A model generated the notes under the pieces. It searched no databases and was not told the DNA's origin. It worked only from the letters and a program-made list of their open reading frames with translations. This document shows, in pieces, positions 3,654 to 34,435 of a DNA stretch of 58,524 bases. Origin of the DNA: Chloroflexota bacterium (GTDB lineage: Bacteria > Chloroflexota > Limnocylindria > P2-11E); NCBI GenBank assembly GCA_005889445.1, contig VBGS01000095.1, positions 1-58,524 of the forward strand, in the 5' to 3' direction. Each line of letters starts with the position of its first letter. The first letter of the stretch is position 1. A program made the position numbers and the translations under genes.

Positions 3654-4687
3654 ACGAACCGCACCCTCCTGCCGAATGTGTGCGTGACGACACGTCCGAG
3701 CGCGTATGCGTCGGGGATCGCGGCGAGCGCGTTGTCGCGGTCGTCGGCGTCTATCGCGACGACCAGTCCGATGCCCATGTTCCACGTGTCGAACGCGTCC
3801 GCGATCGCCACGCGACCCAGCTCCGCGAGGAGAGTGAACAGCCGCGGAACGTCCCACGCTCCCCGATCGATCTCGGCCCCGAGGCCGTCGGGCAGCGCGC
3901 GCGGCAGATTCCCCTCCCAGCCTCCGCCGGTCAGGTGAGCGATCGCGTGTACGCGAGCGCGGTCGCGCAAGGCGCGGAACTCGTCGAGATATGCGCGATG
4001 AGGGGCGAGCAACGCATCGCCGATGGTCCTGTCGTCGAGGTCGCGGCGAGCCTCACCAAGCAGGTCCTCGAACGATCTCGTCTCACTCGCCGCCGCGCGC
4101 GCCAAGATCGTCCGCGCGAGCGTGTAGCCGTTGGTGTGCAGGCCCGTCGACGGGATCCCGATCAGCGCATCGCCCTCGCGGACGCGCTCCGGTCCAAGAA
4201 CGCGATCGCGCGCGACCGCACCGACAAGGAACCCCGCCAGGTCGTACGTGCCCGGCGCGTACATGCCCGGCATTTCGGCGGTCTCCCCGCCGAGCAGCGC
4301 CACTCGATGGCGCGCGCATGCGTCGGCCATCGCCCCAACGACGCGGGCGAAGACCGCGGGCTCGAGGTGCGACGTCGAGAAGTAGTCGAGGAAGAAAAGA
4401 GGCTCGGCGCCCATCGCCATCGCGTCGTTGATGCAGTGATGCACCAGGTCCGTGCCGACGACCTCGTGTCGATCGAGAAGGCGCGCGACCTCGAGCTTGG
4501 TGCCGACTCCGTCGGTGGTCGCGACGAGCACGGTGTCGGCGCCGGGTGACGCGAACAGCCCGCCGAACTGCCCGATGTCGCCGATGACCTCGGGCCGCCG
4601 CGTCTTGCGCAGCCGCTCGCGAACACGTGCGAGCGCGTCGTCCGCGCGACCGATGTCGACGCCAGCGGCCTTGTACGTCAGGCTCAC
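3650..4687 (-). CDS. purM: phosphoribosylformylglycinamidine cyclo-ligase (AIR synthase)
   Basis: VSLTYKAAGVDIGRADDA...TTDGVGTKLEVA...GGETAEMPG. GTG 4687 forms a GTGA overlap with the purF stop. Confidence 0.9.
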   Translation of the reverse strand: MSLTYKAAGVDIGRADDALARVRERLRKTRRPEVIGDIGQFGGLFASPGADTVLVATTDGVGTKLEVARLLDRHEVVGTDLVHHCINDAMAMGAEPLFFLDYFSTSHLEPAVFARVVGAMADACARHRVALLGGETAEMPGMYAPGTYDLAGFLVGAVARDRVLGPERVREGDALIGIPSTGLHTNGYTLARTILARAAASETRSFEDLLGEARRDLDDRTIGDALLAPHRAYLDEFRALRDRARVHAIAHLTGGGWEGNLPRALPDGLGAEIDRGAWDVPRLFTLLAELGRVAIADAFDTWNMGIGLVVAIDADDRDNALAAIPDAYALGRVVTHTFGRRVRFV

Positions 4688-6087
4688 GCGTTCACCTGCT
4701 CGGCCTCGAGCGAGTCCTTGCCGAGCTCGAGCTGCACGGGCACGAGGTAATCGCCGGTGAAGCACGCGGTGCAGAGCTCGGCCTCGGTGCCGCCGGTCGC
4801 GGCGACCATGCCCCCCAGCGAGAGATAGCCGAGCGTATCGGCGCCGATGTGCCGGCGGATGGCCTCGACCTCGAGTCGCGACGCGATGAGCTCGTCACGG
4901 CGCGCCATGTCCACGCCGAAGAAGCACTGGTGCCGGATCGGAGGCGAGCAGATGCGCATGTGGACTTCGCGTGCGCCGTGACCGCGGAGCAGCTCCACGA
5001 TCGGTCCGCTGGTCGACCCGCGCACGATCGAATCGTCGACGACCACGACGCGCTTGCCGTCGAGCACGTCGGCGAGCGCGTTGTACTTCAGCGCGACGCC
5101 CTGACGACGGAGCTCGGGCGACGGCTGGATGAACGTCCGACCGATGTACCGGTTCTTGATGAGGCCCTCGCGGAATGGGATCCCGCTGCGGCGGGCGTAG
5201 CCGACGGCTGCCGGGATCGCGCTGTCGGGCACCGGGATCACGACGTCGGCGATCGCGGGGTGCTCGTCGGCGAGCGTCTCCCCCATCCGTTCCCGCGCCG
5301 CGTAGACCGAGACGCCGCCGAGATCGCTCGCGACCGACGCGAGATACACGTGCTCGAACACGCACATCCCCCGGCGATCGGCCGCGAAGTCGGCGATCGG
5401 AACGGCCCCGCGGTCGTCGATCCGCAGCACCTCGCCGGGCGCGACGTCGCGGACGAAGGCTGCCCCGACGGTCTCGAGGGCGCAGGTCTCGCTCGCGACG
5501 ATCCACGTCTCCCCCTTGCGGCCGAGCGACAGCGGACGGACACCGAGCGGATCGCGGACCGCGTACAGCGCAGACGGTGTGAGGATCACCAGCGACCACG
5601 CGCCGTTCAGCTTCGGGAGCGCGCGGATCAGCCGCTCGTCCCACGTCGCACCGCTCTCGCACGCGACCATCTGCGCGACGACTTCAGTGTCGCTCGATGT
5701 GGCGAAGCGCGCGCCGCCACGCGCCAGCTCATCGCGCAGATCGCGCGCGTTGATGCAGTTGCCGTTGTGTCCGATGGCGAGCTCGCCCAGGCCCGCGGCG
5801 CTCACGACCATCGGCTGCGCGTTCTGGATCCGCGAGCTGCCCGTCGTCGAGTAGCGCGTATGGCCGATGGCCGCGCGCCCGCCGAGCACCGCGAGATCGG
5901 GCTCGCTGAAGACCTGACCGACGAGTCCCATGCGCCGCACGATGCGCAGGTCCGACCCGTCCGTTGCGGCGATTCCCGCCGACTCCTGCCCACGGTGCTG
6001 CAGCGCGTAGAGCGCGAAGAACGTGAGGCGCGCGGCCTCGGTCGGGTCGGCGGTCGTTGGGTTCCAGACGCCGGTGATGCCGCACAT
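4684..6087 (-). CDS. purF: amidophosphoribosyltransferase
   Basis: MCGITGV supplies the N-terminal nucleophile Cys. PRTase loop VVVVDDSIVRGSTSG. 467 aa. Confidence 0.95.
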   Translation of the reverse strand: MCGITGVWNPTTADPTEAARLTFFALYALQHRGQESAGIAATDGSDLRIVRRMGLVGQVFSEPDLAVLGGRAAIGHTRYSTTGSSRIQNAQPMVVSAAGLGELAIGHNGNCINARDLRDELARGGARFATSSDTEVVAQMVACESGATWDERLIRALPKLNGAWSLVILTPSALYAVRDPLGVRPLSLGRKGETWIVASETCALETVGAAFVRDVAPGEVLRIDDRGAVPIADFAADRRGMCVFEHVYLASVASDLGGVSVYAARERMGETLADEHPAIADVVIPVPDSAIPAAVGYARRSGIPFREGLIKNRYIGRTFIQPSPELRRQGVALKYNALADVLDGKRVVVVDDSIVRGSTSGPIVELLRGHGAREVHMRICSPPIRHQCFFGVDMARRDELIASRLEVEAIRRHIGADTLGYLSLGGMVAATGGTEAELCTACFTGDYLVPVQLELGKDSLEAEQVNA

Positions 6088-9305: not shown

Positions 9306-10157
9306 CTAGCTTGGTTCTGGGGAGCCGACGAACCGATCGACCTGATCGGCAAACGCCGCGAGATCGGTGACGCGCGTCTGGAGCTGGCTGTACACGTCGT
9401 CGATGTCGGTCTGTTCGCGATCGTAGGCGAGCAGGTTGCGCAGGTTGGCGAGGTGCTCGAGTCGGTATGCGAGCGCCCGCTCGATCACGCCCTGCTTGGC
9501 GATCGCATCGAGGATGTCGTGATACGCCTCGGGCTTCGCCAGCGCGAGCGCCGCGACCAGGTAGGCGCCGGTGCCGAAGAGGAGCTCGACGGCCTGCTGG
9601 AGATACCACTGGGCGAGCCCGTAAAGCTTCGGGTCGGCCTTGAACTTGGCGTGCTCGATCGGCCGCAGGTCGTTCAGCAGCATCGCGTACTCGCGCAGCC
9701 GCGCGAGCCGCGCGCGAACGTACTCGACGTCGATCGCGAAGCGGTCGCCGCGGGTGCGCTCGGCGAGCGCTTTCGACTGGACCTCGTCGTACTTCTTGAA
9801 CTCGAGGTACTCCATGACGGAACGCGTCTCGAATTGGACGCGCCGCTTCTCATCGCGTTGGTAGAGGAGGTTCCAGCTGCGGATGACCTGCGCCCGCTGC
9901 AGCAGCGACGCCTGGTTGAGGATCACCACGTCGAGACCCTCGGTCTCGAGCGTCTTGCTGAGCTCGGAGACGAAATAGACCTGGTACTCGAAGAACTCGC
10001 TCGCCTTCACCCCGCCCAGCAGGAGGAGCGCGATGTCCAGATCCTGGTACGACCCGGCGATGCGGCGACCGCTCGTGGTCCCCTGGGCGTAGGCCGCGTC
10101 GACCGGCGAGGTCTGGAAGAGGCTCTGTATCTGGGCCTGTCTCTCGAAGAGGTCCAT
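9306..10157 (-). CDS. fused minimal nucleotidyltransferase (MntA-like) plus HEPN/DUF86 (HepT-like) protein
   Basis: The N-terminal half has GTTSGRRIAGSYQDLDIALLL plus LDVVILNQASLL..LLYQRD, the MNT signature. The C-terminal half is DUF86-like and ends in LANLRNLLAYD, so the R-x4-H histidine is replaced by Tyr (nt 9423-9440). The ATG lies 2 nt after the purQ stop. Confidence 0.75.
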   Translation of the reverse strand: MDLFERQAQIQSLFQTSPVDAAYAQGTTSGRRIAGSYQDLDIALLLLGGVKASEFFEYQVYFVSELSKTLETEGLDVVILNQASLLQRAQVIRSWNLLYQRDEKRRVQFETRSVMEYLEFKKYDEVQSKALAERTRGDRFAIDVEYVRARLARLREYAMLLNDLRPIEHAKFKADPKLYGLAQWYLQQAVELLFGTGAYLVAALALAKPEAYHDILDAIAKQGVIERALAYRLEHLANLRNLLAYDREQTDIDDVYSQLQTRVTDLAAFADQVDRFVGSPEPS

Positions 10158-21810: not shown

Positions 21811-21875
21811 TTGTCCACCGTTTGGGCCGCCGGTGGATACATGGTGGACGAATTTGGTGGAGAAGCCTGTGGACC
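21811..21875 (+). promoter_or_regulatory. cluster of five DnaA-box-like (TCCAC/GTGGA core) sites
   Basis: TTGTCCACC (21811-19), GGTGGATAC (21832-40), TGGTGGACG (21842-50), GGTGGAGAA (21856-64), CTGTGGACC (21867-75). The last four share one orientation and are spaced 10-14 bp apart. Confidence 0.45.
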
Positions 21876-21967: not shown

Positions 21968-21996
21968 TTGTCCGCATCGAACGTATGTTCGATACT
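21968..21996 (+). promoter_or_regulatory. candidate dnaB promoter with embedded LexA (SOS/Cheo) box
   Basis: TTGTCC (21968-73), 17 nt, GATACT (21991-96). The spacer holds TCGAACGTATGTTCGA (21977-21992), a perfect TCGAAC-N4-GTTCGA. The dnaB ATG is at 22005. Confidence 0.6.
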
Positions 21997-22004
21997 CTGT
22001 GTAG

Positions 22005-24587
22005 ATGACGCTCGAGACCCGGACCAACCGTCAGGTCCCGTTCGACGAGGGCGCCGAGCAGCAGGTGCTGGGAAGCCTGCTGTCGGATCGCGATGCGATC
22101 TTCAAAGTGGCGGATCTCCTCGGGGTCCAGGACTTCTACGTCCCGCGACATCAGCGCGTGTACGCAGCGGTGCAGGCGCTCCTCGAGCGGCGCGAGCGGA
22201 TCGATCCGCTCACCATCCAGGTCGAGCTGGCTCGCCGCGAGGAACTCGATCGCGTCGGCGGCGCGGCATTCCTGCGCGCGCTCACCGATGCCGTCCCGAC
22301 CGCGGTCGAGATCGAGCGGCACGCCCACGTCGTCCGCGACCGCGCGATCCTTCGCAGGCTGCTCGGCGCGGCGACCGCGATCGCCGCCGACGCCTACGAC
22401 GAGCCGACTGACATCCCGCTCGCCCTCGACCGGGCCGAGCAGCGCCTGTTCGCGCTCCGTGATGAATCCGCCAAAACGCAGCTCCGGCATATCACGGCGT
22501 CGCTCCAGACGAACTACGAGCACCTCACCGAGCGTATGGAGCGTCCCTTCGAGCTCTCGGGGATCCCCTCCGGCTTCAAGGAGGTCGACTACTACACGGA
22601 GGGCTTCACGACGGGGGACCTGATCGTCATCGCGGCGCGCCCGTCGGTCGGAAAGACGAGCCTCGCGCTGGGTATGACCTACAACATCGCGCGGCGCGGA
22701 CACCCGGTCCTGCTTTTTTCGCTTGAGATGGACACCAAGCAGATCGTCGCGCGCTTCCTCGCGCTCAACTCGCGAATGGATCTGCTCGCGATGCGGACCG
22801 GGAACATCATCGACACCGACGCCGCGGCGGCACTGCACGGCCTGCCGATCCTCATCGACGACACGCCCGGCATCTCGATCATGGAGCTGCGCACGAAGGC
22901 GCGCCGCGCGAGCACGCACGAGAAGATCGAGGTCATCGTCGTCGATTACCTCCAGCTCGTGCGAACCGGCGGTGAGGAAGAGAACCGCGTTCAGGAGATC
23001 GCGGCGATCACTCGCAATCTCAAATCACTCGCGCGCGAGTTGAACGTGGTCATCATCGGTCTGTCGCAGCTCTCGCGGGCCGCGGGCGATTCTGGAGGCG
23101 AACCGAAGCTCTCGACACTCCGCGAATGCGTAACGGCGGAAACGATCGTGTGCCTCGCAGACGGAAGGCGAATTCCCGTCTCTGAACTTGTGGGAACAAG
23201 GCCAGTGGTGTGGTCGCTCCGGAATGACCGCCTCGTCACGGCGGAGGCGGAGGCTGTCTTCGTCGTCGGGAGCAAGCCCGTTTACAAGGTCCGATTGGCG
23301 AGCGGACGGTCGATCCGCGCAACGGCCGAGCATCGCCTTCGCGGATTCGATCGGTGGCAAACCGTCGCGGAACTCAAGAGCGGTGACCGGCTCGCGATCG
23401 TCAGAAGGCTCCCGGAGCCCAATTCGACCGTCGAATGGCGCGACCCGAAGATCGGCTTTCTTGGTCAGATGATCGGCGACGGTAGCTACCTGAAGAGCGC
23501 TCCGATGCGCTACACGACGAGCTCTGAAGCAAACAGTCGCTTTGTGGCCGAAACCGCGATCGACGAGATTGGAGCCCGAGTGAAGCGATATCCGGATGTG
23601 GGCAACTGGCATCAGCTCCTAATCAGTGGAAACGGCAATCGCTGGCATCCCGCCGGTGTCAACCAATGGTTCCGACAGCTGGGGATTTTCGGACAGCGTT
23701 CGCATCAGAAGCGGGTTCCTCGCGATGCATTCGCCTTGTCAAACGAGCAGTTGAAGACGCTTCTGCGACATCTCTGGGCAACGGACGGGTCGATCAGCAT
23801 TCGCACCGGTCTTGGTGGACATGGCATGTACTACGCGACCAACAGCCCGGGGTTGGCGGCTGATGTCGCCGCCCTCCTTCTGCGATTGGAGATCGTGACC
23901 CGAACGATACGCACTGTTGAAACGCCGTACCTCCCGGGCTATCAAGTCCACATTTCGGGCACCGAGGCCCAGAGACGTTTCGTCGAGTCGGTGGGTGCGT
24001 TTGGGCCGCGGACTGAACCTGCCACCGCATTCATGGCCGTCACGGCGAACACCATTCCCAACACGAACGTCGACACGGTTCCGCGCGAGGTATTCGATGT
24101 GGTGCGCGCCCGCATGAAGCAACGACTGATCACGACGCGAGAAATGGCGCGCCTTCGTGGCACCTCGTACGGCGGATCAGGACACTTCAGCTTCTCGCCG
24201 TCACGACCGCATCTCGCCAGCTACGCGGAGCTTCTCGAGGACGACGAGCTCATGGCCCATGCGACCAATGATCTGTTCTGGGACGAGGTCATCGAGGTTG
24301 CGCCCGACGGCGAGGAGCTCGTCTATGACTTGACCGTTCCTGAGACCGAGTGCTGGCTTGCGGACGGGATCGTGAGTCACAACTCTGGCGCCCTCGAGCA
24401 AGATGCGGACATCGTGATGATGCTCTGGCGCGAAAAGGACGAGACCCCTCCCGGCGCGCCGCGGCTCATCAATGGCAGCGTCGCGAAGAACCGGAACGGA
24501 CCGACCGGGATCTTCCAGCTCCTGTTCGAGAGTGAGCAAGCCAAGTTCTTCTCGAAGGCACCCGAAGACAGCGGAGCGCCGGTATGA
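22005..24587 (+). CDS. dnaB: replicative DNA helicase DnaB, interrupted by an intein
   Basis: N-terminal domain ...VPFDEGAEQQVLGSLL..., Walker A ARPSVGKTSLAL, Walker B VVDYLQL, SQLSR, then ...KLSTLRE | intein | SGALEQDADIVMMLWRE...NRNGPTG. The extein is 441 aa. Confidence 0.9.
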   Translation: MTLETRTNRQVPFDEGAEQQVLGSLLSDRDAIFKVADLLGVQDFYVPRHQRVYAAVQALLERRERIDPLTIQVELARREELDRVGGAAFLRALTDAVPTAVEIERHAHVVRDRAILRRLLGAATAIAADAYDEPTDIPLALDRAEQRLFALRDESAKTQLRHITASLQTNYEHLTERMERPFELSGIPSGFKEVDYYTEGFTTGDLIVIAARPSVGKTSLALGMTYNIARRGHPVLLFSLEMDTKQIVARFLALNSRMDLLAMRTGNIIDTDAAAALHGLPILIDDTPGISIMELRTKARRASTHEKIEVIVVDYLQLVRTGGEEENRVQEIAAITRNLKSLARELNVVIIGLSQLSRAAGDSGGEPKLSTLRECVTAETIVCLADGRRIPVSELVGTRPVVWSLRNDRLVTAEAEAVFVVGSKPVYKVRLASGRSIRATAEHRLRGFDRWQTVAELKSGDRLAIVRRLPEPNSTVEWRDPKIGFLGQMIGDGSYLKSAPMRYTTSSEANSRFVAETAIDEIGARVKRYPDVGNWHQLLISGNGNRWHPAGVNQWFRQLGIFGQRSHQKRVPRDAFALSNEQLKTLLRHLWATDGSISIRTGLGGHGMYYATNSPGLAADVAALLLRLEIVTRTIRTVETPYLPGYQVHISGTEAQRRFVESVGAFGPRTEPATAFMAVTANTIPNTNVDTVPREVFDVVRARMKQRLITTREMARLRGTSYGGSGHFSFSPSRPHLASYAELLEDDELMAHATNDLFWDEVIEVAPDGEELVYDLTVPETECWLADGIVSHNSGALEQDADIVMMLWREKDETPPGAPRLINGSVAKNRNGPTGIFQLLFESEQAKFFSKAPEDSGAPV
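23127..24383 (+). mobile_element. DnaB intein (419 aa) with LAGLIDADG homing-endonuclease domain
   Basis: Starts with Cys (CVTAETIVCLADG). Block B is ATAEHRL. LAGLIDADG-like motifs are FLGQMIGDGSY and LLRHLWATDGSI. Blocks F and G are LVYDLTVPETECWLADGIVSHN, followed by the +1 Ser. Confidence 0.85.
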
Positions 24588-25912
24588 CGATCGCCGTCGA
24601 TCGCGGCGTCAAGCCACCGCCGGAAAAACCCGAGGCGGAGGCTTCGCTCCTGGGCGCGATGCTCATGGACGGCACGATCTACAACGAGGTAGCGCGTGGG
24701 CGCCTCGCGCCGGCGGATCTCTCCCGCGAGCAGCATCGCATCGTCCTCGGGGCGATCGCGCGCGTCGCGGATCGCAGCGAGCATGTCGGGTTCGCGACCG
24801 TGCAGGCCGAGCTCGCCGCGCGCGACGAGCTCGACGCGGTCGGCGGTCCGCAGTTCCTCGTCGGCCTCATGCAGTCCGTTCCGACGGTCGCGCACGCCGC
24901 CAGCTACGCGGCGATCGTCGAGCGGACGGCGCTGCTGCGACGGCTCATCGGCGTCGCGAACGAGATCGCACGCCTCGCGCTCACACGCGACGAGGCGAGC
25001 GCCGCGGTCGCCGACGCGCAGGAGCTGCTCTTCGCCGTGAGCGAAACGACGCTGCACCGCGACATCGTCTCGCTCGAGGTCGCGCTCCACCGCTACGCGG
25101 AGCAGATCGACCAGCGCGGCGATCAGCGCATCGGGATCAAGTCCGGGCTCGATTCGGTCGACAAACGGACCGGCGGGCTGCAGCCCTCCGACCTCATCCT
25201 CATCGCCGGTCGTCCCGGCCTGGGCAAGACGAGCTTCGCGCTCAACATCGTCGAGCATGCCGCGATCGTCGAGCGGAAGACATGCGCCTTCTTCTCGATG
25301 GAGATGAGCGAGATGCAGGTCGTGCAGCGTCTTGTGTCGATGCTCGCCGAGATCGATGGGAACCGCATGCGGCGCGGGCGCCTTTCGACGCAGGAGTTCG
25401 TCGCGATCTCGGCCGCGTCCAGCCAGCTGCAGCAGGCGCCGATCTACGTCGAGGAGTCCAACCGGCTCACGGTCACGGACATCCTCGCGAAGTCGCGGCG
25501 CCTTCAGGCCGAGCGTGGGCTCGACTTGGTCGTCATCGACTATCTGCAGCTCATCGAAGGCGTCGAGCAGGACGAGAGCCGCGTCCTCGAGGTCGCCCGG
25601 ATCAGCCGGGCGCTCAAGGCGATCGCCCGCGAGCTCGAGGTGCCGGTGGTCGCGCTCTCGCAGCTCTCGCGGCAGATCGAGCAGCGCGGGACCGAGCCGA
25701 TGCTCTCAGATCTTCGCGAAAGTGGCGCTCTCGAAGCCGACGCAGATCTCGTGATGTTCCTCTGGCAGAAGGACCGCAAGGACCGCGAAGAGGGCGTGGT
25801 GCGGCTCAAGCTCGCGAAACACCGCAACGGCCCAACCGGCGACTTCGATCTTCATTTCCAGTCCGAGCTCACGCGGTTCCGCGATCTCGGGGAGACGCGC
25901 GAAGGCGCCTAG
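24584..25912 (+). CDS. dnaB: second DnaB-family replicative helicase, no intein
   Basis: ATGA overlap with the stop of the first copy. ...PEAEASLLGAML..., GRPGLGKTSFAL, VVIDYLQL, SQLSRQIEQR, and an uninterrupted PMLSDLRESGALEADADLVMFLW...HRNGPTG. Confidence 0.9.
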   Translation: MTIAVDRGVKPPPEKPEAEASLLGAMLMDGTIYNEVARGRLAPADLSREQHRIVLGAIARVADRSEHVGFATVQAELAARDELDAVGGPQFLVGLMQSVPTVAHAASYAAIVERTALLRRLIGVANEIARLALTRDEASAAVADAQELLFAVSETTLHRDIVSLEVALHRYAEQIDQRGDQRIGIKSGLDSVDKRTGGLQPSDLILIAGRPGLGKTSFALNIVEHAAIVERKTCAFFSMEMSEMQVVQRLVSMLAEIDGNRMRRGRLSTQEFVAISAASSQLQQAPIYVEESNRLTVTDILAKSRRLQAERGLDLVVIDYLQLIEGVEQDESRVLEVARISRALKAIARELEVPVVALSQLSRQIEQRGTEPMLSDLRESGALEADADLVMFLWQKDRKDREEGVVRLKLAKHRNGPTGDFDLHFQSELTRFRDLGETREGA

Positions 25913-26976: not shown

Positions 26977-27769
26977 GCACTTCCCCCTGCGGGAACCGTG
27001 CCCGCAGCGCCGCGAGCGCCTTCGCGAGCGCGGTCTCGCGGTCGGCCGCCCAGAACGAGACGAGGTACTGCGCCTTGCCGTCCTGCACGCTGCGGAGTTC
27101 GGCGCGGGCCGGGGGCTCGGGCGAGATGCCGTCGGTCTTCGCGAGGCTCGCGCGGATTTCGTCGGCGGTGATCGCCGGAGCGTCCGCGGGCAGCGCAAGC
27201 CATGCATCCACCCGGCGGGTCGGGAAGCGCGTCGTGTTCACGACCGCCGAGGTCATGAACGTGCCATTGGGGACGATGACCTGCCGACCGTCATCGGTCC
27301 GCATCTGCGTCGTGCGGAACGAGATGTCCTCGACGGTGCCCGAGAAGCCCGACACTTCGATGACATCGCCGATGTTGAACGGGCGCTCGACGAGGACCCA
27401 GGCCCCTGCGAAAAAGTTCTTCAGGATGTCCTGCAGCGAAAGACCGATGACGATCGCGACCGCGCTGAATGACCCAAGGATCCAGCCGAACGCGTCGCGG
27501 GTGTAGATCGCGACGATCCCGAGCGCCCCGATCGTGATCACGGCGATCTGTGCGACGTTGCCGATGAGGATGGTCGCGTTCCCGTAAGCGCGGTGTCGCG
27601 CAAGGGTCCGCATCGTCGCCCCGCGGATGGCGCGCGCCACGAGAAGCGTGACTGCGGCGATGACCAGGGCCCAAAAGGTCCGGGCTCCGTAGTCGAGCAG
27701 GTTCTCCCGGACGACCGCCGGGTCGAGGGGCACGGCGCGAGAATACGGGGCCGCTTGACAACTGAACAT
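26969..27769 (-). CDS. MscS-family mechanosensitive channel
   Basis: ...LQDILKNFFAGAWVLVERPFNIGDVIEVSGFSGTVEDISFRTTQMRTDDGRQVIVPNG.... The start is uncertain: ATG 27769 lies inside the lexA operator, and GTG 27733 is an alternative. Confidence 0.75.
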   Translation of the reverse strand: MFSCQAAPYSRAVPLDPAVVRENLLDYGARTFWALVIAAVTLLVARAIRGATMRTLARHRAYGNATILIGNVAQIAVITIGALGIVAIYTRDAFGWILGSFSAVAIVIGLSLQDILKNFFAGAWVLVERPFNIGDVIEVSGFSGTVEDISFRTTQMRTDDGRQVIVPNGTFMTSAVVNTTRFPTRRVDAWLALPADAPAITADEIRASLAKTDGISPEPPARAELRSVQDGKAQYLVSFWAADRETALAKALAALRARFPQGEVHG

Positions 27770-27784
27770 CTGTTCGGTTAGCCT
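27755..27784 (+). promoter_or_regulatory. lexA promoter with LexA box
   Basis: TTGACA (27755-60), then GAACATCTGTTC (27764-75) in the spacer, then TAGCCT (27779-84). The lexA GTG is at 27794, only ~10 nt downstream of the -10. Confidence 0.7.
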
Positions 27785-27793
27785 CTGACGAGC

Positions 27794-28405
27794 GTGACCA
27801 AGCAGGACCAGCAGCGGGCGGAAAAGATCCTGGCCTTCATCCGCGAGGCGGTCGCCGAGCGGGGGTATCCCCCGAGCGTCCGCGAGATCGCGGAGGCGGT
27901 CGGGCTGGCCTCCACGTCCGCCGTGCACCACCACCTCACCAAGCTCGAGAAGGAAGGCCGCCTGACCAAGGAGGCCACCAGGTCGCGGGCGCTCAGCCTC
28001 CCCGGTTCACTTGGCACAAAGGTCGTGCAGGCGCCGATCGTCGGGGAGATCGCGGCCGGCCAGCCGATCCATGCCTACGAGGACCGCTCCGAGACGATCA
28101 CCCTTCCCAGCGAGCTGTCCGCGTCGCGGGGCCGCGAGACGTTCGTGCTTCGCGTTCGCGGCAAGTCGATGATCGAGGACCACATCGACGACGGCGACTT
28201 TGTCGTCGTGCAAGAGCAGAACACCGCGCGGGACGGCGACATCGTCGTGGCGCTCCTGGAGGACAACGTGGCCACCCTCAAGCGCTTCTACAAGGAGCGC
28301 GATCGGGTGCGGCTGCAGCCGGCGAACGGCACGATGTCGCCCATCTACGCGCGCGATGTCCAGATCCAGGGAAAAGTGATAGGCGTCATCCGACGCCTCG
28401 CCTAA
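27794..28405 (+). CDS. lexA: LexA repressor
   Basis: ...GYPPSVREIAEAVGLASTSAVHHHLTKLEKEG... is the wHTH. The Ala-Gly cleavage site is in VGEIAAGQPI, and GKSM / ATLKRF supply the Ser-Lys dyad. Confidence 0.95.
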   Translation: MTKQDQQRAEKILAFIREAVAERGYPPSVREIAEAVGLASTSAVHHHLTKLEKEGRLTKEATRSRALSLPGSLGTKVVQAPIVGEIAAGQPIHAYEDRSETITLPSELSASRGRETFVLRVRGKSMIEDHIDDGDFVVVQEQNTARDGDIVVALLEDNVATLKRFYKERDRVRLQPANGTMSPIYARDVQIQGKVIGVIRRLA

Positions 28406-28417
28406 CCTCCACGCACC

Positions 28418-29536
28418 ATGCCCACTCGCGTTCCAACGATCACCGACCGTGAGCTGAACCGCGCGCTCCTCGCGCGACAGCTCCTCCTCGAGCGGCGCAA
28501 GGTCGGCATCGTCGACGCGATCGAGCGTCTGGGAGGTCTTCAGGCGCAGTGGGCGCCTTCACCATACGTCGCGCTCTGGAGCCGGCTCGTCGCGTTCGAG
28601 CGCGATCAGCTCACCCGGCCGATCGAGCGCGGCCAGATCGTGAAGGCGACCCTGATGCGCGCGACGCTCCATCTGATATCGGCACGCGAATACCCGGCGT
28701 ACTCGCTCGCCACGATGGAAGGGCGCTTCGGTGCGTGGCGTCCGCCTGGCGGTCCGGCGCTGGACGATCTGAGGGACGTGCACGCCAGCGTCCTGAAGTT
28801 CGCGGCAAAGACGCCGCGGACCCGGGACGAGATCGGTGATCACATCGCGGCGCATCTGCCAAAAAGCGCGGTGAATGACGAGCGCATGCGGAACTGGCTC
28901 CTCTGGGCCGCCATCGCCACGAGCGGCCTGATCTGGGAGGCGGCGGGCGCGCGCTGGGAGCACCGGCAGCTCGCGCGCCACATCGCACCGCCAGCGCGGC
29001 TGCGGCAGTTGCCCCGCCCGGAGGCCGCATACGACCTCGTCGTGCGGCGGCATCTCGGCGCGTTCGGGCCGGCGACCGTCAGCGACATCGCGACGTGGAG
29101 CAGCATCCGCGTCCCTCAGATACGCGCGGCGCTCGGGCGCCTCCGCGGTCTACGGCGCTTCACCGATGAAAGAGGACGCGAGCTCATCGATCTCGCGGCC
29201 GCGCCACGTCCCGACCCTGACACGAACGCCCCGGCGCGCTTCCTGGCGCGCTTTGACGCGGCGATCCTGGGTCACGCCGCACCCGAGCGGACGCGAATCC
29301 TGCCCGACGCCTACCGCAAGGCGGTCATCTTCTCCGCAGAGGTGTTCACCACATTCCTCGCGGACGGCTTCGTCGCCGGTCTCTGGAAGATCTCGGCGAC
29401 GCCCAAGCAGGCGGTGCTCGAGCTGCGTCCGTTCAAAAGACTCCCGCGCGCCGTCCGCACCGCGCTCGTCGAGGAGGGCGAGCAGCTGGTGCGCTTCTAT
29501 TACCCCGAGTCCCGGATCCACGGGGTTCGCGTATGA
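28418..29536 (+). CDS. HTH_42 (DUF1006) winged-helix protein, AlkZ/YcaQ-like putative DNA glycosylase, copy 1
   Basis: ...RELNRALLARQLLLERRKVGIVDAIERLGGLQAQWAPSPYVALWSRL...ATLMRATLHLISA...FLADGFVAGLWKI.... Starts 12 nt after the lexA stop. Confidence 0.7.
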   Translation: MPTRVPTITDRELNRALLARQLLLERRKVGIVDAIERLGGLQAQWAPSPYVALWSRLVAFERDQLTRPIERGQIVKATLMRATLHLISAREYPAYSLATMEGRFGAWRPPGGPALDDLRDVHASVLKFAAKTPRTRDEIGDHIAAHLPKSAVNDERMRNWLLWAAIATSGLIWEAAGARWEHRQLARHIAPPARLRQLPRPEAAYDLVVRRHLGAFGPATVSDIATWSSIRVPQIRAALGRLRGLRRFTDERGRELIDLAAAPRPDPDTNAPARFLARFDAAILGHAAPERTRILPDAYRKAVIFSAEVFTTFLADGFVAGLWKISATPKQAVLELRPFKRLPRAVRTALVEEGEQLVRFYYPESRIHGVRV

Positions 29537-30657
29537 GGGTCGCCGCGGAGAAGGCACTCACGCTCCGCGAGCTCAATCGCGCGATGCTCGCGCGACAGCT
29601 CCTCCTCGAGCGCACAAAGCTGGGCATCGTCGCCGCGATCGAGCGCCTGCCCGCGCTTCAGGCGCAGTGGGCGCCGTCGCCGTACTACGCGCTGTGGGCG
29701 CGACTCGCTCACTTCACGCGGGAGCGTCTTTGGGCTGCGATCGAGAGCCACCGCGTGATCCGCGCGCGGTTGATGCGAGGCACGCTGCACCTGGTGAGCG
29801 CTCGCGATTTCTACGCCTACGCCGTCGCAACGCAGGACCTCCAGCGCGGCGCGTGGAACCGCGTCCAGGTCGCAAAGGGCATCGAGCCCGATGCGGTCGC
29901 GGAGCTCGCGATCGCGTTCGCGCGACACCCGCGCGCGCGCGAGGACGTGATCGCGCACCTTCGCGACCGGCTCGGCGAGGTCTTCAACGAGGACTACCGG
30001 TGGCTGCTCTGGCGTTTCGTCAGCGCGCACGCCGATCTGGTGTCGGCGCCGCCCGGCGGGCACTGGGGATACGGCGGGACCGAGGCGCCGTACGTTGCCG
30101 CGAAGCACTGGATCGCACACGGATCGCGGCCAAACGAGGACGCGGCGCTCGACGTCCTTGTCCGGCGCGCCGTCGCCGCATTCGGTCCGGCGACCCTCGC
30201 CGATGTCGCCAAATTCGCCGGCGCGGTACCGGCCCGGATCCGACCGGCCCTCGACCGTCTCGCGCCACGGCTCGCGCGCTTCCAGGACGAGCAGGGCCGC
30301 ACGCTGTTCGATCTCAAGCGATCGCCTCGACCATCCCCGGACCTGAAGCCACCGATCCGTTTTCTGCCGCGGTACGAGCAGATCCTCATCGCCTATCAGC
30401 ACCGGGATCGCGTCATCGCCCCACGCCATCGCCCGGCGATCTACTCCAAGAACGGAATCATCGAGGCAACGTTCCTCGTGGACGGGTTCGTCGCCGGGAC
30501 ATGGTCGGTGGTCAGGAACAAGAGCGACGCGGTCGTCGCGGTGCACCCGTTCGCACGGCTCGCGCCGGCAGACCGAACGGCGGCGCTCGTTGAGGCCGAG
30601 CGGCTGGCGAGATTCGCTGTGCCCGAGGCCCGCGTCCACGGGGCGAAGGTCGCGTGA
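29533..30657 (+). CDS. HTH_42 (DUF1006) winged-helix protein, AlkZ/YcaQ-like, copy 2
   Basis: ATGA overlap with copy 1. ...RELNRAMLARQLLLERTKLGIVAAIERLPALQAQWAPSPYYALWARL...RLMRGTLHLVSA...FLVDGFVAGTWSV.... Confidence 0.7.
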   Translation: MRVAAEKALTLRELNRAMLARQLLLERTKLGIVAAIERLPALQAQWAPSPYYALWARLAHFTRERLWAAIESHRVIRARLMRGTLHLVSARDFYAYAVATQDLQRGAWNRVQVAKGIEPDAVAELAIAFARHPRAREDVIAHLRDRLGEVFNEDYRWLLWRFVSAHADLVSAPPGGHWGYGGTEAPYVAAKHWIAHGSRPNEDAALDVLVRRAVAAFGPATLADVAKFAGAVPARIRPALDRLAPRLARFQDEQGRTLFDLKRSPRPSPDLKPPIRFLPRYEQILIAYQHRDRVIAPRHRPAIYSKNGIIEATFLVDGFVAGTWSVVRNKSDAVVAVHPFARLAPADRTAALVEAERLARFAVPEARVHGAKVA

Positions 30658-31868
30658 ACGAACCGCGCGCGATCCTGCACTGCGATCTCGATGCGTTCTA
30701 CGCGTCGGTCGAGCAGCGCGACCACCCCGAGTACCGCGGAAGGCCGGTCATCGTCGGCGGCGGCGGACCGGAGGAGCGCGGTGTGGTCATGGCGGCTTCG
30801 TACGAAGCGCGCAGGTTCGGGGTCCGCTCCGCGATGCCGCTGCGGATGGCCGGGCGGCTCTGCCCCGATGCCATCTTCGTTCCCGGCGACCACGAGCAGT
30901 ACGGAAGGGCGTCCGACGACGTGATGGCGCTCTTCGAGGAGCGCACGCCCCTCGTTGAGCCCATCTCTCTCGACGAGGCGTTCCTCGACGTCACCGCCAG
31001 CGTGGAGCTGTTCGGGGGTCCGGAGCAGATCGCGCGTTCGATCAAGGACGACGTACGCGCGCGGTGCGGACTCGTGATCTCGGTCGGCGTCGCGACGAAC
31101 AAGCTCTGCGCGAAGATCGGTTCCGACCTGCGGAAGCCCGACGGGTTGGTCGTCGTGCCGCCCGGGACAGAGGCCGCGTTCCTGGCGCCGCTTCCGCTCG
31201 AGCGCCTGTGGGGCGTCGGCCCGAAGACGCGCGAGGTGCTCGGTCTGTGGGGTCTGCGGACGGTCGGCGAGCTGGCGGTGTTCGACCGAAAGACCCTTGA
31301 AACGCGGCTCGGCGAGCATGGCATCGACATCTGGGAGCGCGCCAACGGGATCGACGACGGGGCCGTGATCGCCAGCGGCGCGCCACCGAAGTCCGTTGGT
31401 CATTCGCATACGTTCGACGAGAACACGCTCGATCCGTCGAAGATCGAGTCAACGCTGCTCCGGCTCGCGGAAGGAGTTGGCCGGCGGTTGCGCGATCACC
31501 GGCTGCTCGGCAGGACCGTCACGCTCACGCTGCGCGTCGCGCCGTTCGAGACGCGGACGCGCCAGCGCACGTTTAGCGAGGCGACCAACGACGACGCGCG
31601 GATCTTTCATGTTGCGCGTCAGCTGCTGCGGGAAGCGCTCGCCGAGGATCGGCAGGGCGGACGCACGAGCCCTGTTCGGTTAGTCGGCGTCTCGCTGTCC
31701 GGACTTGTTGGAGGGGAGCAGCTTGGATTATTCGAGAGCGCCCGTCACAACCGACTCAATGCCGCGTTAGACGCAGTTCGCGCTCGTTTTGGCGATGACG
31801 CGCTCGATCGAGCGAGCGTACGCGAGCGCGCCGAGCGCCGTCGGTTCAGCGGACACAAGTCGAGATGA
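30654..31868 (+). CDS. dinB: DNA polymerase IV (Y-family)
   Basis: GTGA overlap with the preceding gene. ILHCDLDAFYASVEQRD...VGGGGPEERGVVMAASYEARRFGVRSAMP...SLDEAFLDVT.... Confidence 0.9.
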   Translation: MNEPRAILHCDLDAFYASVEQRDHPEYRGRPVIVGGGGPEERGVVMAASYEARRFGVRSAMPLRMAGRLCPDAIFVPGDHEQYGRASDDVMALFEERTPLVEPISLDEAFLDVTASVELFGGPEQIARSIKDDVRARCGLVISVGVATNKLCAKIGSDLRKPDGLVVVPPGTEAAFLAPLPLERLWGVGPKTREVLGLWGLRTVGELAVFDRKTLETRLGEHGIDIWERANGIDDGAVIASGAPPKSVGHSHTFDENTLDPSKIESTLLRLAEGVGRRLRDHRLLGRTVTLTLRVAPFETRTRQRTFSEATNDDARIFHVARQLLREALAEDRQGGRTSPVRLVGVSLSGLVGGEQLGLFESARHNRLNAALDAVRARFGDDALDRASVRERAERRRFSGHKSR

Positions 31869-31907
31869 GCGTCAATGAATCCTGTGGGATTTCGGCGCGG
31901 ATCGACA

Positions 31908-31959
31908 TGTGGAGAACTCTGTGGAGAACTTCGTGGACAGATCGTCTTGTGGTGGACGC
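31908..31959 (+). repeat. phased direct repeats with a DnaA-box-like GTGGA core
   Basis: TGTGGAGAA (31908-16), TGTGGAGAA (31920-28), CGTGGACAG (31932-40), GGTGGACGC (31951-59). All share one orientation, and the first three are 12 bp apart. Confidence 0.5.
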
Positions 31960-31970
31960 ACCGCGTGTCG

Positions 31971-32282
31971 ATGATGCCCCGGTCCAACAGCGCGAAGGGG
32001 AAGGAAGGGGTGCCCGACGAAAGGATCGCCCAAGTGGCGATCGACTTCATCTCGTTCTGCTTCTCTCGGCGCGAGGTGGAATGGCCTCTCCTCTACGACG
32101 AGATGTGCCGCGTGGCGTCGAACAAGCTGTACCGAGGTCTTGGCTACGAAGAGCTGCGTGAAGCGGGGCTCGATCTGACGCTCGGCGGTCTCGTGCGAAC
32201 GAGCCGCATCGCGAACGAGGTCACGCGCGAGATACGGCAGGGCAATCGAGAGCTGCGCGAGGGCCTCTTGGCGGCGAGCTAG
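31971..32282 (+). CDS. hypothetical protein (103 aa), no recognisable family
   Basis: MMPRSNSAKGKEGVPDERIAQVAIDFISFCFSRREVEWPLLYDEMCRV.... The composition looks less GC-rich than the flanks. The track start at 31875 would translate the repeat array, so I prefer the ATG-ATG at 31971. Confidence 0.35.
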   Translation: MMPRSNSAKGKEGVPDERIAQVAIDFISFCFSRREVEWPLLYDEMCRVASNKLYRGLGYEELREAGLDLTLGGLVRTSRIANEVTREIRQGNRELREGLLAAS

Positions 32283-32414
32283 CGACATTGGCCACACCGG
32301 CGGGGCGGCGAGTGAAAGGAAGCGCACTCGCCGCCTCTTTTCTTGTCTGAGACACGCTCTGGCACAATGGTCTGACGCGAGGGGAGAACGCGAAAAATGC
32401 GGCTCTTTTCGCTC

Positions 32415-32488
32415 GGTCCCGTGGTGCAGCGGCCTAGCATACGTCCCTGTCAAGGACGAGATCGCCGGTTCGAATCCGGTCGGGACCG
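32415..32488 (+). tRNA. tRNA-Asp (GTC)
   Basis: Hand-folded cloverleaf. Acceptor GGTCCCG/CGGGACC, D stem GTGC/GCAT, anticodon stem CGTCC/GGACG with loop CTGTCAA, T arm GCCGG-TTCGAAT-CCGGT, discriminator G. CCA is not encoded. Confidence 0.85.
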
Positions 32489-32493
32489 CCGGT

Positions 32494-34435
32494 TCAGCTG
32501 ACCCGCTGAATCTCGCCAAGCCAGACGCGCAGACGTTCGCCCATCGCCGTGGCGCCGACGATCGGCTCTTCAAACCGCCAGTCCGTGGGATGGAGCACGA
32601 ACGCGTGGCTCTGCCATCCACCGAGACCGCCGTGCGATCCGAGCTGCTCCTCGAACGGGGCGACCTCGCCGGACGCGTCGTCGAACATGCTGATCAGGAC
32701 GAGATCGCCGCAGTTCGGCATCGCGTCGATGCGGCGAAGCCCTTCCAGTCCGTGCGGTCCGAACGCGGCGATCGGGTCGGTCCCGATGACGAGATCGTTG
32801 GCGAGGCGATAGACGCCGCGTCCGCCAAGCACGAGCGTCCCCTCGTCGCGCGAGTGGACCATGACCAGACCGATGCCGGGATGTTTCATCAGGCCGTCTA
32901 TGAGTCCAGGGAATCGCTCGTCGATCGTCTCTCTATCGACGCGGCCCGCGAGCCGCGGCATCGAGATGTGTGCGAGGTTGCCCGTGGCAGCCACGACGAG
33001 ATGGGGCAGCTCCTTCTCATCGCGCGGCCCAGCGCGCGAATCCGGCGGACCGCGAAGGATCCGGCGGCCGGCGGTCGCAAGGATCGGTGACGCCTCGGCG
33101 TCGAGTGCCCCGAGCCGACCCAGATGCTCGGCGAGGGCGGTCTCGCCGCGCACCGTCGCATCACCGCTGAGCTCGTCCACGAGCTGCTCGAGGGTCTTGC
33201 CGAAGCGGCGGCGGAACGTGGTCCCGGGACTCTGGCCGTGGTCGGAAAGCACGACGAACCGATAGCGGCGCGGAGAGTCGGCCGCCGCCTTCTCGAGCAC
33301 CGCGATGATCCGATCGGTACATCTCCTCGATGACGAGGGCGGTGGTGAGGTGCCGCAGGAGCACGTTGGTCGCGGCGCGCGCGAACGGATACGGGAACGC
33401 GCGCGGTCCGCGGAACGGGCCACTTCTTGCGCGTGCCGCTTGCACGATCTCCTTGGCGATCTCGCCGACCGAGAGCACGATCCACCGCAGGTAGCTGTAC
33501 GGACTCAGGAACCACCAGTCGAGCACGTGGCTGCGGCGAAGCTCGCGTGCCGGATCATCGATCGTCGCCGCGGTGAGGTAGCTGCGGCTCGCGTCGCCCG
33601 AGAGCAGGTTGCCCACCGACGCTCCGCCGCCGGTGAGCAGGCCGGTGCCGTCGGAAACCCGTTTCTCGATCTCGCGCGCGTCCGCGGGATGGTTGGACAC
33701 CAGAAGCCGCTGGGTCTCCTTCTCCCACCAGCGGAAACCGGGGATGCCGTCGTTCCGACGGTGAAGCAGGCCCGCCTGGCTCGCCGAGGTCTGCGTCGGC
33801 AGAAGCGGCTGCCACTCGTCGAGGGTCATTCCGCCACTGATCCAGCGCGCGAGCGTCGGCATACGGCCCGCCAGGAGCTCGCGGCGCAGGACCGGAGCGG
33901 AGAGGCCGTCGATCTGGACGACGACGGCACCCTGCCCCGCGCTGCCCGGAGCGAAGGGGTGGCGCACCGCGAGCTGGCGGCACAGCGTTCCGAAGAACGA
34001 GTCGTCGTCGCCGATCGAAAGTCCGGCGGCGAGCAACGCATCGATGAGCGAGTACACCAGTGACGCGAGCGCGGCGGACCAGAGCCCATCGATCTGAAAA
34101 CCTCCGGGCAGGCGGGAGAGAAGGGCGAATCCGGCTGTCTGGAGCACGAGCGTCGCGATCCCGACGAAGATCACCGAAAACCCAGACAGGAGCCCGATCA
34201 GCACCGGTCGTGCGAGGGCGGACAGCGCTCCGAGCACCAGCGCCGCGACGATGACCGACCCCGGCTCGCGGACCCTGATCCCCGGTATCGCCCACACGGT
34301 CACGCCGAGGGCGATCGCCGACACCGCGAAGATCTCGAGGATCCTGCGCGCGATCGCGGCCCGGCTCCCGCTCCAGCGACGAAGGAGGTGGAACTGGGTC
34401 GCGTAGAAGCTGCGGACGCGGCGGAGCGCGCTCAT
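32494..34435 (-). pseudogene. membrane-anchored alkaline-phosphatase/NPP-superfamily phosphodiesterase, frameshifted
   Basis: The N-terminal part (track ORF 33161-34435) has TM helices, VVVQIDGLS and PTQTSASQ. The C-terminal part (32494-33423) has RYRFVVLSDHGQS...GSHGG and sits in another frame. The frames join at ~33309-33320 (EEMY / DRIIAVLEK). Confidence 0.65.

Follow-up and report, generated by a model that had tools for sequence, protein, structure and literature searches.

What would two DNA glycosylase-like paralogues be doing between lexA and dinB? The question is raised by a contig of 58,524 nucleotides (VBGS01000095.1 of assembly GCA_005889445.1; the whole contig is called the window below) from a Chloroflexota bacterium placed by the GTDB in the class Limnocylindria, on which lexA, two paralogues of the HTH_42 family (PF06224) and dinB, encoding DNA polymerase IV (Pol IV), follow one another on the same strand. 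We call the paralogues AlkZ-like (AZL), AZL-A and AZL-B. An earlier note made from the sequence had proposed that the four genes are a self-contained, damage-inducible repair module. With moderate confidence, we read them as a LexA-autoregulated SOS operon of the Limnocylindria that would provide AlkZ-type excision and Pol IV from a single transcript.

Gene identities, promoter and junctions of the lexA cassette

All four family assignments score above the curated cutoffs of Pfam and NCBIfam. LexA matches PF01726 (LexA_DNA_bind, E = 7e-20), PF00717 (Peptidase_S24, E = 1e-31) and the NCBIfam equivalog model TIGR00498 (204 bits against a cutoff of 111), and BLASTP places its Ala88-Gly89 cleavage site, Ser125 and Lys163 on A84-G85, S119 and K156 of the E. 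coli protein. DinB, which is 39% identical to E. coli DinB, matches PF00817 (IMS, E = 4e-49), PF11798 (IMS_HHH), PF11799 (IMS_C, E = 8e-29) and the NCBIfam Pol IV model PRK03858 (382.5 bits, cutoff 367); its D11/D13 and D107/E108 align with the catalytic D8/D10 and D103/E104 of E. coli. Near residue 355 its translation reads QLGLF, which resembles the consensus of the clamp-binding pentapeptide.

Both AZLs match PF06224 over its full length (profile positions 1-329 of 329; E = 3.4e-61 for AZL-A and 9.1e-62 for AZL-B), and they are 43% identical to each other from end to end. The earlier note had read the LQAQW that they share near residue 40 as the Q-hydrophobic-Q catalytic motif of AlkZ-type glycosylases, and had named a hidden Markov model search with PF06224 and an alignment with AlkZ and YcaQ as the checks to make. 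In an alignment that took in Streptomyces sahachiroi AlkZ and E. coli YcaQ (from NC_000913), LQAQW occupies residues 41-45 of AZL-A and 42-46 of AZL-B, and the motif residues Q42-A-Q44 and Q43-A-Q45 fall on the Q-A-Q of AlkZ (Q37/Q39) and on Q45-I-D47 of YcaQ, so that the catalytic glutamine pair is present in both paralogues, as predicted. The published motifs are (Q/H)-aliphatic-Q for AZL, Q-aliphatic-D for YQL and H-aliphatic-(S/T)-(D/E) for AZL2 (PMC9040887). The YQL motif is absent, the third position being Q where YcaQ has D47, and the Q-A-Q-W of both paralogues is not that of AZL2 either. Since Q-x-Q fits the published definition, we assign both to the AZL subfamily, and the alignment supports an AlkZ-type rather than a YcaQ-type identity for these putative enzymes.

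The only relative of either paralogue among PDB sequences is S. sahachiroi AlkZ (5UUJ; E = 1.8e-16 for AZL-A and 7e-11 for AZL-B), at an identity of only 22-30%. An AlphaFold2 model of AZL-A, built from a shallow alignment and of low confidence (pLDDT 54.8), gave AlkZ (5uuj, E = 2e-9, TM-score 0.50) and AlkX (9zd6) as its only significant Foldseek matches. AlkZ is then the best PDB match by sequence and, as far as the low-confidence model goes, by fold, the fold of the family being a C-shape made of three winged-helix modules and a beta-barrel.

Two other accounts of the pair turn on this motif. One is that its enzymatic function has been lost or changed, leaving, for example, winged-helix proteins that bind DNA, sense lesions or act as regulators and bring in Pol IV, or a heteromer with one dead subunit. 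The fold can be non-catalytic, since the AlkZ-like module of mycobacterial Lhr-CTD is without catalytic residues or known glycosylase activity (PMC8053096), and the two paralogues are always translated in tandem. However, both glutamines of Q-x-Q (QAQ or QGQ) are invariant in every complete SOS-linked AZL, across the three clades A, B and C described below, and the two paralogues match full-length PF06224 with similar scores, and we judge this account very improbable. The other is that the pair confers resistance to a genotoxin made by the host itself, as AlkZ, HedH4, TxnU and LldU do. Q-x-Q is the signature of the AZL subfamily associated with biosynthetic gene clusters (PMC9040887), and paired AZL paralogues occur in the trioxacarcin (TXN) and LL-D49194 (LLD) clusters (PMC8934636). 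Against this, no biosynthetic gene cluster was found in the 58.5-kb contig or in the syntenic loci, and the genes are conserved throughout the class in a housekeeping neighbourhood. We rejected a self-resistance role because no biosynthetic genes lie nearby, and give it hardly any credence.

Upstream of lexA the earlier note had described an autoregulated-looking promoter, with GAACATCTGTTC between TTGACA and TAGCCT. This promoter is present, with a spacer of 18 nt that contains GAACATCTGTTC, and its operator is conserved: the layout TTGACA-N3-4-GAACATnnGTTCGGT-TAnnnT recurs in 49 of the 49 related lexA promoters that could be read, where the LexA box is a perfect palindrome 26-37 nt upstream of the lexA start. 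The operator is of the GAAC-N4-GTTC type of Gram-positive bacteria, a type that has also been reported for Dehalococcoides. The window holds two perfect GAAC-N4-GTTC sites against 0.73 expected, both in promoter position. The second (GAACGTATGTTC, 21979-21990) lies 14 nt upstream of dnaB1, a position kept in at least 17 loci, and the conservation of this box supports GAAC-N4-GTTC as the real LexA operator of the lineage. Predicted autoregulation of LexA through an operator in its own promoter is supported by the conserved lexA copy. The -10 element ends about 9 nt before the GTG start codon, in the window as in its relatives, which makes a leaderless lexA mRNA probable.

The dnaB1 gene is the first of two tandem dnaB paralogues (22005-25912) that share an ATGA overlap, and in the window it carries an intein with a LAGLIDADG domain (860 aa). 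The box in front of it suggests a replicative-helicase paralogue under SOS control.

The junctions given in the earlier note, a 12-nt gap after lexA followed by ATGA and GTGA overlaps, are exact to the nucleotide (Table 1). No + strand terminator was found within the four-gene block of the window by an automatic scan, and a scan of the same block returned no promoter-like site. Gene order and junctions support an operon-type arrangement, and the note's single apparent operon is borne out in so far as the spacing of the junctions is kept in about 50 genomes.

It could still be that the block is not controlled by the SOS response as a unit, with internal or constitutive promoters driving the AZLs and dinB and the palindrome serving lexA only or another factor. 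The gene just 3' of dinB, orf5, apparently has its own promoter, which makes internal promoters conceivable, and in two related loci (L015 and L018) a TnpB-like gene stands between lexA and AZL-A with the downstream genes intact. On the other side, the genes stand too close together (12, -4 and -4 nt) for a promoter to fit between them, the scan found none inside the block, and the TnpB-like inserts lie on the same strand, so that read-through could be preserved. We regard separate control as improbable.

Table 1. Features of the lexA cassette and its flanks, in window coordinates.
Feature	Positions	Strand	Details
lexA promoter	27755..27784	+	-35 TTGACA 27755-27760; operator GAACATCTGTTC 27764-27775; -10 TAGCCT 27779-27784
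lexA	27794..28405	+	GTG start 27794, TAA end 28405; 203 aa; Pfam and NCBIfam matches
AZL-A, AlkZ-like (HTH_42 / PF06224) putative DNA glycosylase	28418..29536	+	ATG start, TGA end; 372 aa
AZL-B, second AlkZ-like paralogue	29533..30657	+	ATG start; 374 aa; ATGA overlap with AZL-A
dinB (DNA polymerase IV)	30654..31868	+	GTG start; 404 aa; GTGA overlap with AZL-B
DnaA-box-like repeat array, conserved, non-coding	31883..31957	+	alignment of 46 loci and the window
orf5, conserved small helical protein	31971..32282	+	103 aa from ATG 31971; tblastn matches in 46 loci
Ultra-conserved element, roughly 55 nt	32288..32345	+	13-bp hairpin and U-tract; stem-loop 32302-32337; loop AAAGGAAGCG
tRNA-Asp (GTC)	32415..32490	+	ARAGORN, Rfam and alignment; conserved neighbour marking the end of the block

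Distribution and history across Candidatus Limnocylindria

A profile scan with AZL-A and AZL-B over one genome per GTDB species recovered 80 loci (numbered with an L), which were annotated by tblastn; the relatives of the window are labelled Candidatus Limnocylindria. In 53 of the 80, here termed Limnocylindria-type, lexA and/or dinB directly flank the AZL gene or genes, sharing their strand and keeping a constant order. Of these loci, 29 have the A and B pair, 21 (about 40%) have a single AZL between lexA and dinB, and three end at a contig edge. The distance from lexA to the first AZL is usually 9-18 nt, the two AZLs are spaced by -4 nt in 28 of the 29 two-gene loci and by -1 nt in the other, and the spacing from AZL to dinB is -4 nt in most loci. 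Three more contigs, found in metagenomes and an NCBI metagenome-assembled genome (MAG) by exact-protein look-up, have the same four-gene order. The survey of lexA-adjacent HTH_42 genes that the earlier note had called for thus yields a class-wide feature of Candidatus Limnocylindria and not a peculiarity of a single genome.

In the other 27 loci, which belong to Actinomycetota, Dormibacterota, Armatimonadota and other Chloroflexota (38-46% identity), neither lexA nor dinB was found within about 6 kb of the AZL, and in two actinobacterial loci the neighbouring genes are unrelated metabolic ones. A perfect LexA box within 200 nt upstream of the AZL was present in one of the 27, the orphan AZL of L081, which has GAACAGCGGTTC nearby; this contig is labelled Chloroflexota only and may lie outside the class.

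A neighbour-joining tree gathers the SOS-linked AZLs into one clade with sub-clades A, B and the single-copy C. The ancestral unit was probably lexA-AZL-dinB and the A/B pair a later tandem duplication, with occasional loss of A or B afterwards (L053; L024, L030) as the simplest history. That both paralogues have been kept over a long time speaks for purifying selection acting on each of them.

This distribution also bears on whether the glycosylases and the polymerase work together. They may simply share an SOS operon, an AZL having been inserted into a prior lexA-dinB unit that was then inherited vertically, without any mechanistic partnership. Operons of lexA with a Y-family polymerase exist without a glycosylase (Geobacter lexA-imuB-C-polY, PMC6511836), the single-AZL, A-only and B-only variants show that glycosylase content is flexible, and the entire neighbourhood is syntenic in the class, so that the linkage may be one of simple inheritance. 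However, the 4-nt overlap of the last AZL with dinB is kept in most loci, across AZLs that are only 41-50% identical to those of the window, and among the recovered loci of the class there is no lexA-dinB without an AZL, nor any member of this AZL clade apart from lexA and dinB. We consider co-residence without partnership a real but distinctly less probable account than the reading proposed here.

Several loci depart from the common layout. The TnpB-like inserts of L015 (2108-3361) and L018 (4751-5986), identified by eye as TnpB / IS605 OrfB-like open reading frames (ORFs) of 411-417 aa, measure about 1.25 kb, and the genes beyond them are still intact. In L048 (5611-6000; MAG UBA4730) the operator is intact and LexA can be traced ahead of the AZL for its first 41 residues only, which may reflect a truncation or an assembly error. 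Cassettes on contigs labelled Bathyarchaeia, Acidiferrales and Saccharimonadales (L014, L027 and L049), with about 66-90% protein identity to the window, are probably mis-binned Limnocylindria contigs. The actinobacterial loci L066, L071 and L077 have two AZLs of different clades (QAQW and Q(N/D)QY), in tandem or within a few kb, so that the pairing of AZL paralogues is a recurrent trait and not tied to the SOS cassette.

A proposed damage-inducible pathway and its known relatives

We propose that in an undamaged cell a LexA dimer on GAACATCTGTTC, between the -35 and -10 elements, would block RNA polymerase. On DNA damage, self-cleavage of LexA stimulated by RecA (at Ala88-Gly89, through Ser125 and Lys163) would free the promoter, and a single, probably leaderless mRNA would carry lexA, AZL-A, AZL-B and dinB, with the 12-nt gap and the two 4-nt overlaps coupling their translation; transcription may read on through orf5 to a hairpin at 32302-32345. 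The AZLs would act as monofunctional glycosylases that excise cationic N7-alkylguanine lesions, whether bulky monoadducts, interstrand crosslinks or both, and leave abasic sites, and Pol IV would fill in, or extend synthesis across, whatever adduct or abasic intermediates are left. Expressed together under LexA, a glycosylase that is potentially toxic would be held down until it is wanted, and a polymerase that tolerates lesions would then be at hand. Overexpressed YcaQ is toxic through an overload of abasic sites (PMC7367128), which offers a rationale for tight LexA control of an AZL, and the abasic sites left by some AZL reactions are poorly processed by endonuclease IV (PMC8934636). LexA binding, damage induction, the AZL substrates and cooperation between glycosylase and polymerase are all steps that we infer.

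A number of observations weigh against this proposal. The organisms are uncultured. With TAGCCT the window has a weak -10 element, AZL-A lacks a clear Shine-Dalgarno sequence, and the structure models are of low confidence. Synteny covers everything from dnaB to tRNA-Asp throughout the class, so that gene order cannot by itself count as independent evidence that the genes are functionally coupled. In E. coli, ycaQ is expressed constitutively and is not SOS-induced, failing to rise with lexA and uvrA (PMC7367128), and SOS control of an HTH_42 family member would be without experimental precedent. Because the AZLs that have been studied are self-resistance enzymes of narrow specificity, substrates cannot be extrapolated from them to the cassette.

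The occurrence of paired AZLs in the TXN and LLD clusters and in actinobacterial loci suggests complementary specificities. A more ambitious version of the proposal, which we think doubtful, would have two LexA-induced AZLs, complementary in the strand or the lesion that they prefer, unhook lesions where forks have stalled and pass the intermediates directly to clamp-bound Pol IV. This dedicated, replication-coupled route for repairing crosslinks or bulky adducts would be a prokaryotic counterpart of NEIL3 and translesion synthesis, set in a replication-stress locus together with the SOS-box DnaB paralogue and orf5 with its DnaA-box-like repeats. In the replication-coupled crosslink repair of vertebrates, the glycosylase NEIL3 unhooks a crosslink, and a translesion polymerase then gets past the strand that is left abasic or adducted. 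Both schemes follow one logic with unrelated protein families; the cooperation has been shown biochemically for NEIL3, whereas here it is suggested by gene linkage.

Compared with AlkZ and the other known AZLs (S. sahachiroi AlkZ, 5UUJ; HedH4; TxnU2/U4; LldU1/U5), the cassette AZLs are alike in their full-length PF06224 match and in the register of Q-x-Q, and they come as a paralogue pair as in the TXN and LLD clusters. They differ in standing away from biosynthetic gene clusters, within a lexA operon with dinB. In having a conserved sequence and a conserved neighbourhood they resemble YQL and AZL2 as characterised by Bradley et al. 2022. With E. coli YcaQ and Acinetobacter baumannii AlkX, both YQL, they share the superfamily, the fold as far as the low-confidence model shows it, a housekeeping-type context and a presumed role in general defence against crosslinkers, but YQL proteins have Q-x-D in place of the Q-x-Q of the cassette. 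To our knowledge, Acinetobacter has no LexA. The alkX gene is induced by mechlorethamine, through a regulator that is not named in the AlkX study (PMC13303869). Constitutive ycaQ and inducible alkX are the only regulatory findings that we met for HTH_42 glycosylases.

The earlier note had held the cassette to be analogous to, yet distinct from, imuA-imuB-dnaE2. This stands for the middle genes and has to be qualified for the type of operon. Like imuA-imuB-dnaE2 and lexA-imuB-C-polY of Geobacter, the cassette joins an autoregulated lexA to a Y-family polymerase in a damage-inducible unit, damage induction being a prediction in our case. Its middle genes are AlkZ-like glycosylases in place of ImuB-C, ImuA, ImuB or DnaE2: the genes between lexA and the polymerase match PF06224 only, with no dedicated ImuB-C model having been run. 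The polymerase is a DinB with intact catalytic residues and the clamp-binding-like motif. Operons of lexA with a Y-family polymerase were already known from Geobacter (PMC6511836), and what is new is the presence of AlkZ-type glycosylases within a lexA-headed damage-tolerance operon. Full-text literature searches found no publication linking HTH_42, AlkZ or YcaQ to LexA, dinB or Limnocylindria, in agreement with the note's impression that the arrangement is undescribed.

Another system compared, mycobacterial lhr-nei2, is a mitomycin C-inducible operon that brings together an AlkZ-like winged-helix module (Lhr-CTD) and the glycosylase Nei2 and is implicated in crosslink tolerance. It differs in being controlled by PafBC rather than LexA, in having an AlkZ-like module without catalytic residues and in having no polymerase (PMC8053096).

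What HTH_42 proteins do in settings other than antibiotic clusters is an acknowledged question, and Bradley et al. 2022 call for surveys beyond Streptomyces. A class-wide lexA-AZL-dinB operon with predicted translational coupling is the first sign that the family can belong to an SOS regulon, and it adds to the Q-x-Q "self-resistance" subfamily a housekeeping branch, predicted to be damage-inducible, in Chloroflexota that are abundant in soil. With its two members, the A/B pair is a natural experiment in the divergence of substrate specificity after duplication, and the cassette as a whole offers a testable hypothesis of bacterial glycosylase unhooking paired with translesion synthesis.

The region downstream of dinB and the wider neighbourhood

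The earlier note had ended the block at dinB, and here it fell short: a conserved fifth gene, orf5, and a hairpin lie beyond it. In 46 loci, which is nearly all of them, orf5 is directly 3' of dinB and always on the + strand. Between the two genes is an array of same-orientation repeats of the form TGTGGA(N)AA, three of them at a 12-nt period (TGTGGAGAA at 31908 and 31920, CGTGGACAG at 31932), flanked by GTGG(G)A copies. In-frame stops upstream in several loci indicate that the array region is not coding and that orf5 starts at ATG 31971 or GTG 32010; the form deposited at NCBI (P0126) is the 90-aa protein from GTG 32010. The related motif GTGGAVRA is enriched, with 15 occurrences in the window where 8.1 would be expected, and TGTGGATAA and TGTGGACAA are complementary to the DnaA boxes of E. 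coli and of actinobacteria.

Folding found no terminator-like structure between dinB and orf5 (z = -1.1). After the array comes a candidate orf5 promoter, TTGTGG (31947-31952) and GATGAT (31970-31975) separated by 17 nt, in which CTTGT is invariant. It follows that orf5 can receive read-through from the lexA promoter and probably has separate control as well, which is possibly DnaA-dependent.

For the product of orf5, searches of Pfam, NCBIfam and PHROG and a PDB profile search returned nothing, and its structure model, from a shallow alignment, is of low confidence (pLDDT 51.7). The family is large, with 237 clusters at 50% identity and at least 6,891 unnamed proteins, and its core motif is F(I/V)xFCxxRRxxxWPxLYDEMCxVA...GYxEL. 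An unrelated lineage of 70% GC has a similar array ahead of its orf5 homologue, with three GTGGAC boxes at a 12-nt period (L090 4708-4746); no array was found ahead of the homologue in a lineage of 50% GC. In this second lineage the homologue is downstream of an RNase P RNA-like sequence and upstream of a CtpB-like S41 peptidase (L088 about 4140-4480; L089 about 4440-4800), and a short conserved non-coding stretch (ttccagcttgggttgagaaaagggg...) precedes it.

A similar GTGGA(C/T/G)(A/G)A array stands upstream of dnaB1 in Limnocylindria (window 21811-21875). The DnaA-box-like arrays may represent promoters under DnaA control or pieces of a replication origin. The cumulative GC skew of the window has its minimum near 28,000-31,500, beside the cassette, although the signal is weak; to the left of about 21.8 kb most genes run on the - strand, and neither dnaA nor dnaN was found among the larger window genes scanned. 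Skew and gene strands are weakly compatible with a nearby replication origin, and the pairing of the array with an orf5 homologue in another lineage favours a regulatory site over an origin.

The hairpin after orf5 folds at -35.7 kcal/mol (z = -3.3); going downstream from the lexA promoter, it is the first intrinsic terminator that is strong. The automatic scan missed it because its loop is 10 nt long, and it was found by folding. Its core 18-mer, AGTGAAAGGAAGCGCACT, does not vary among 39 loci in which the proteins on either side share only 45-80% identity, and five loci share one compensatory change of a C:G pair to G:C. An Rfam search over 27500-32700 returned only tRNA-Asp, the hairpin and the GTGGA array matching no described RNA family. 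The element may be more than a terminator.

The neighbours of the cassette are purine-biosynthesis genes, dnaB, rplI, a gene for an MscS-type channel, peptidase genes and nuo genes. In the purine-biosynthesis region, an ORF on the - strand (9306-10157) encodes a nucleotidyltransferase (Polbeta) domain together with a HepT-like RNase domain, and looks like a fused MNT/HepT toxin-antitoxin-like gene.

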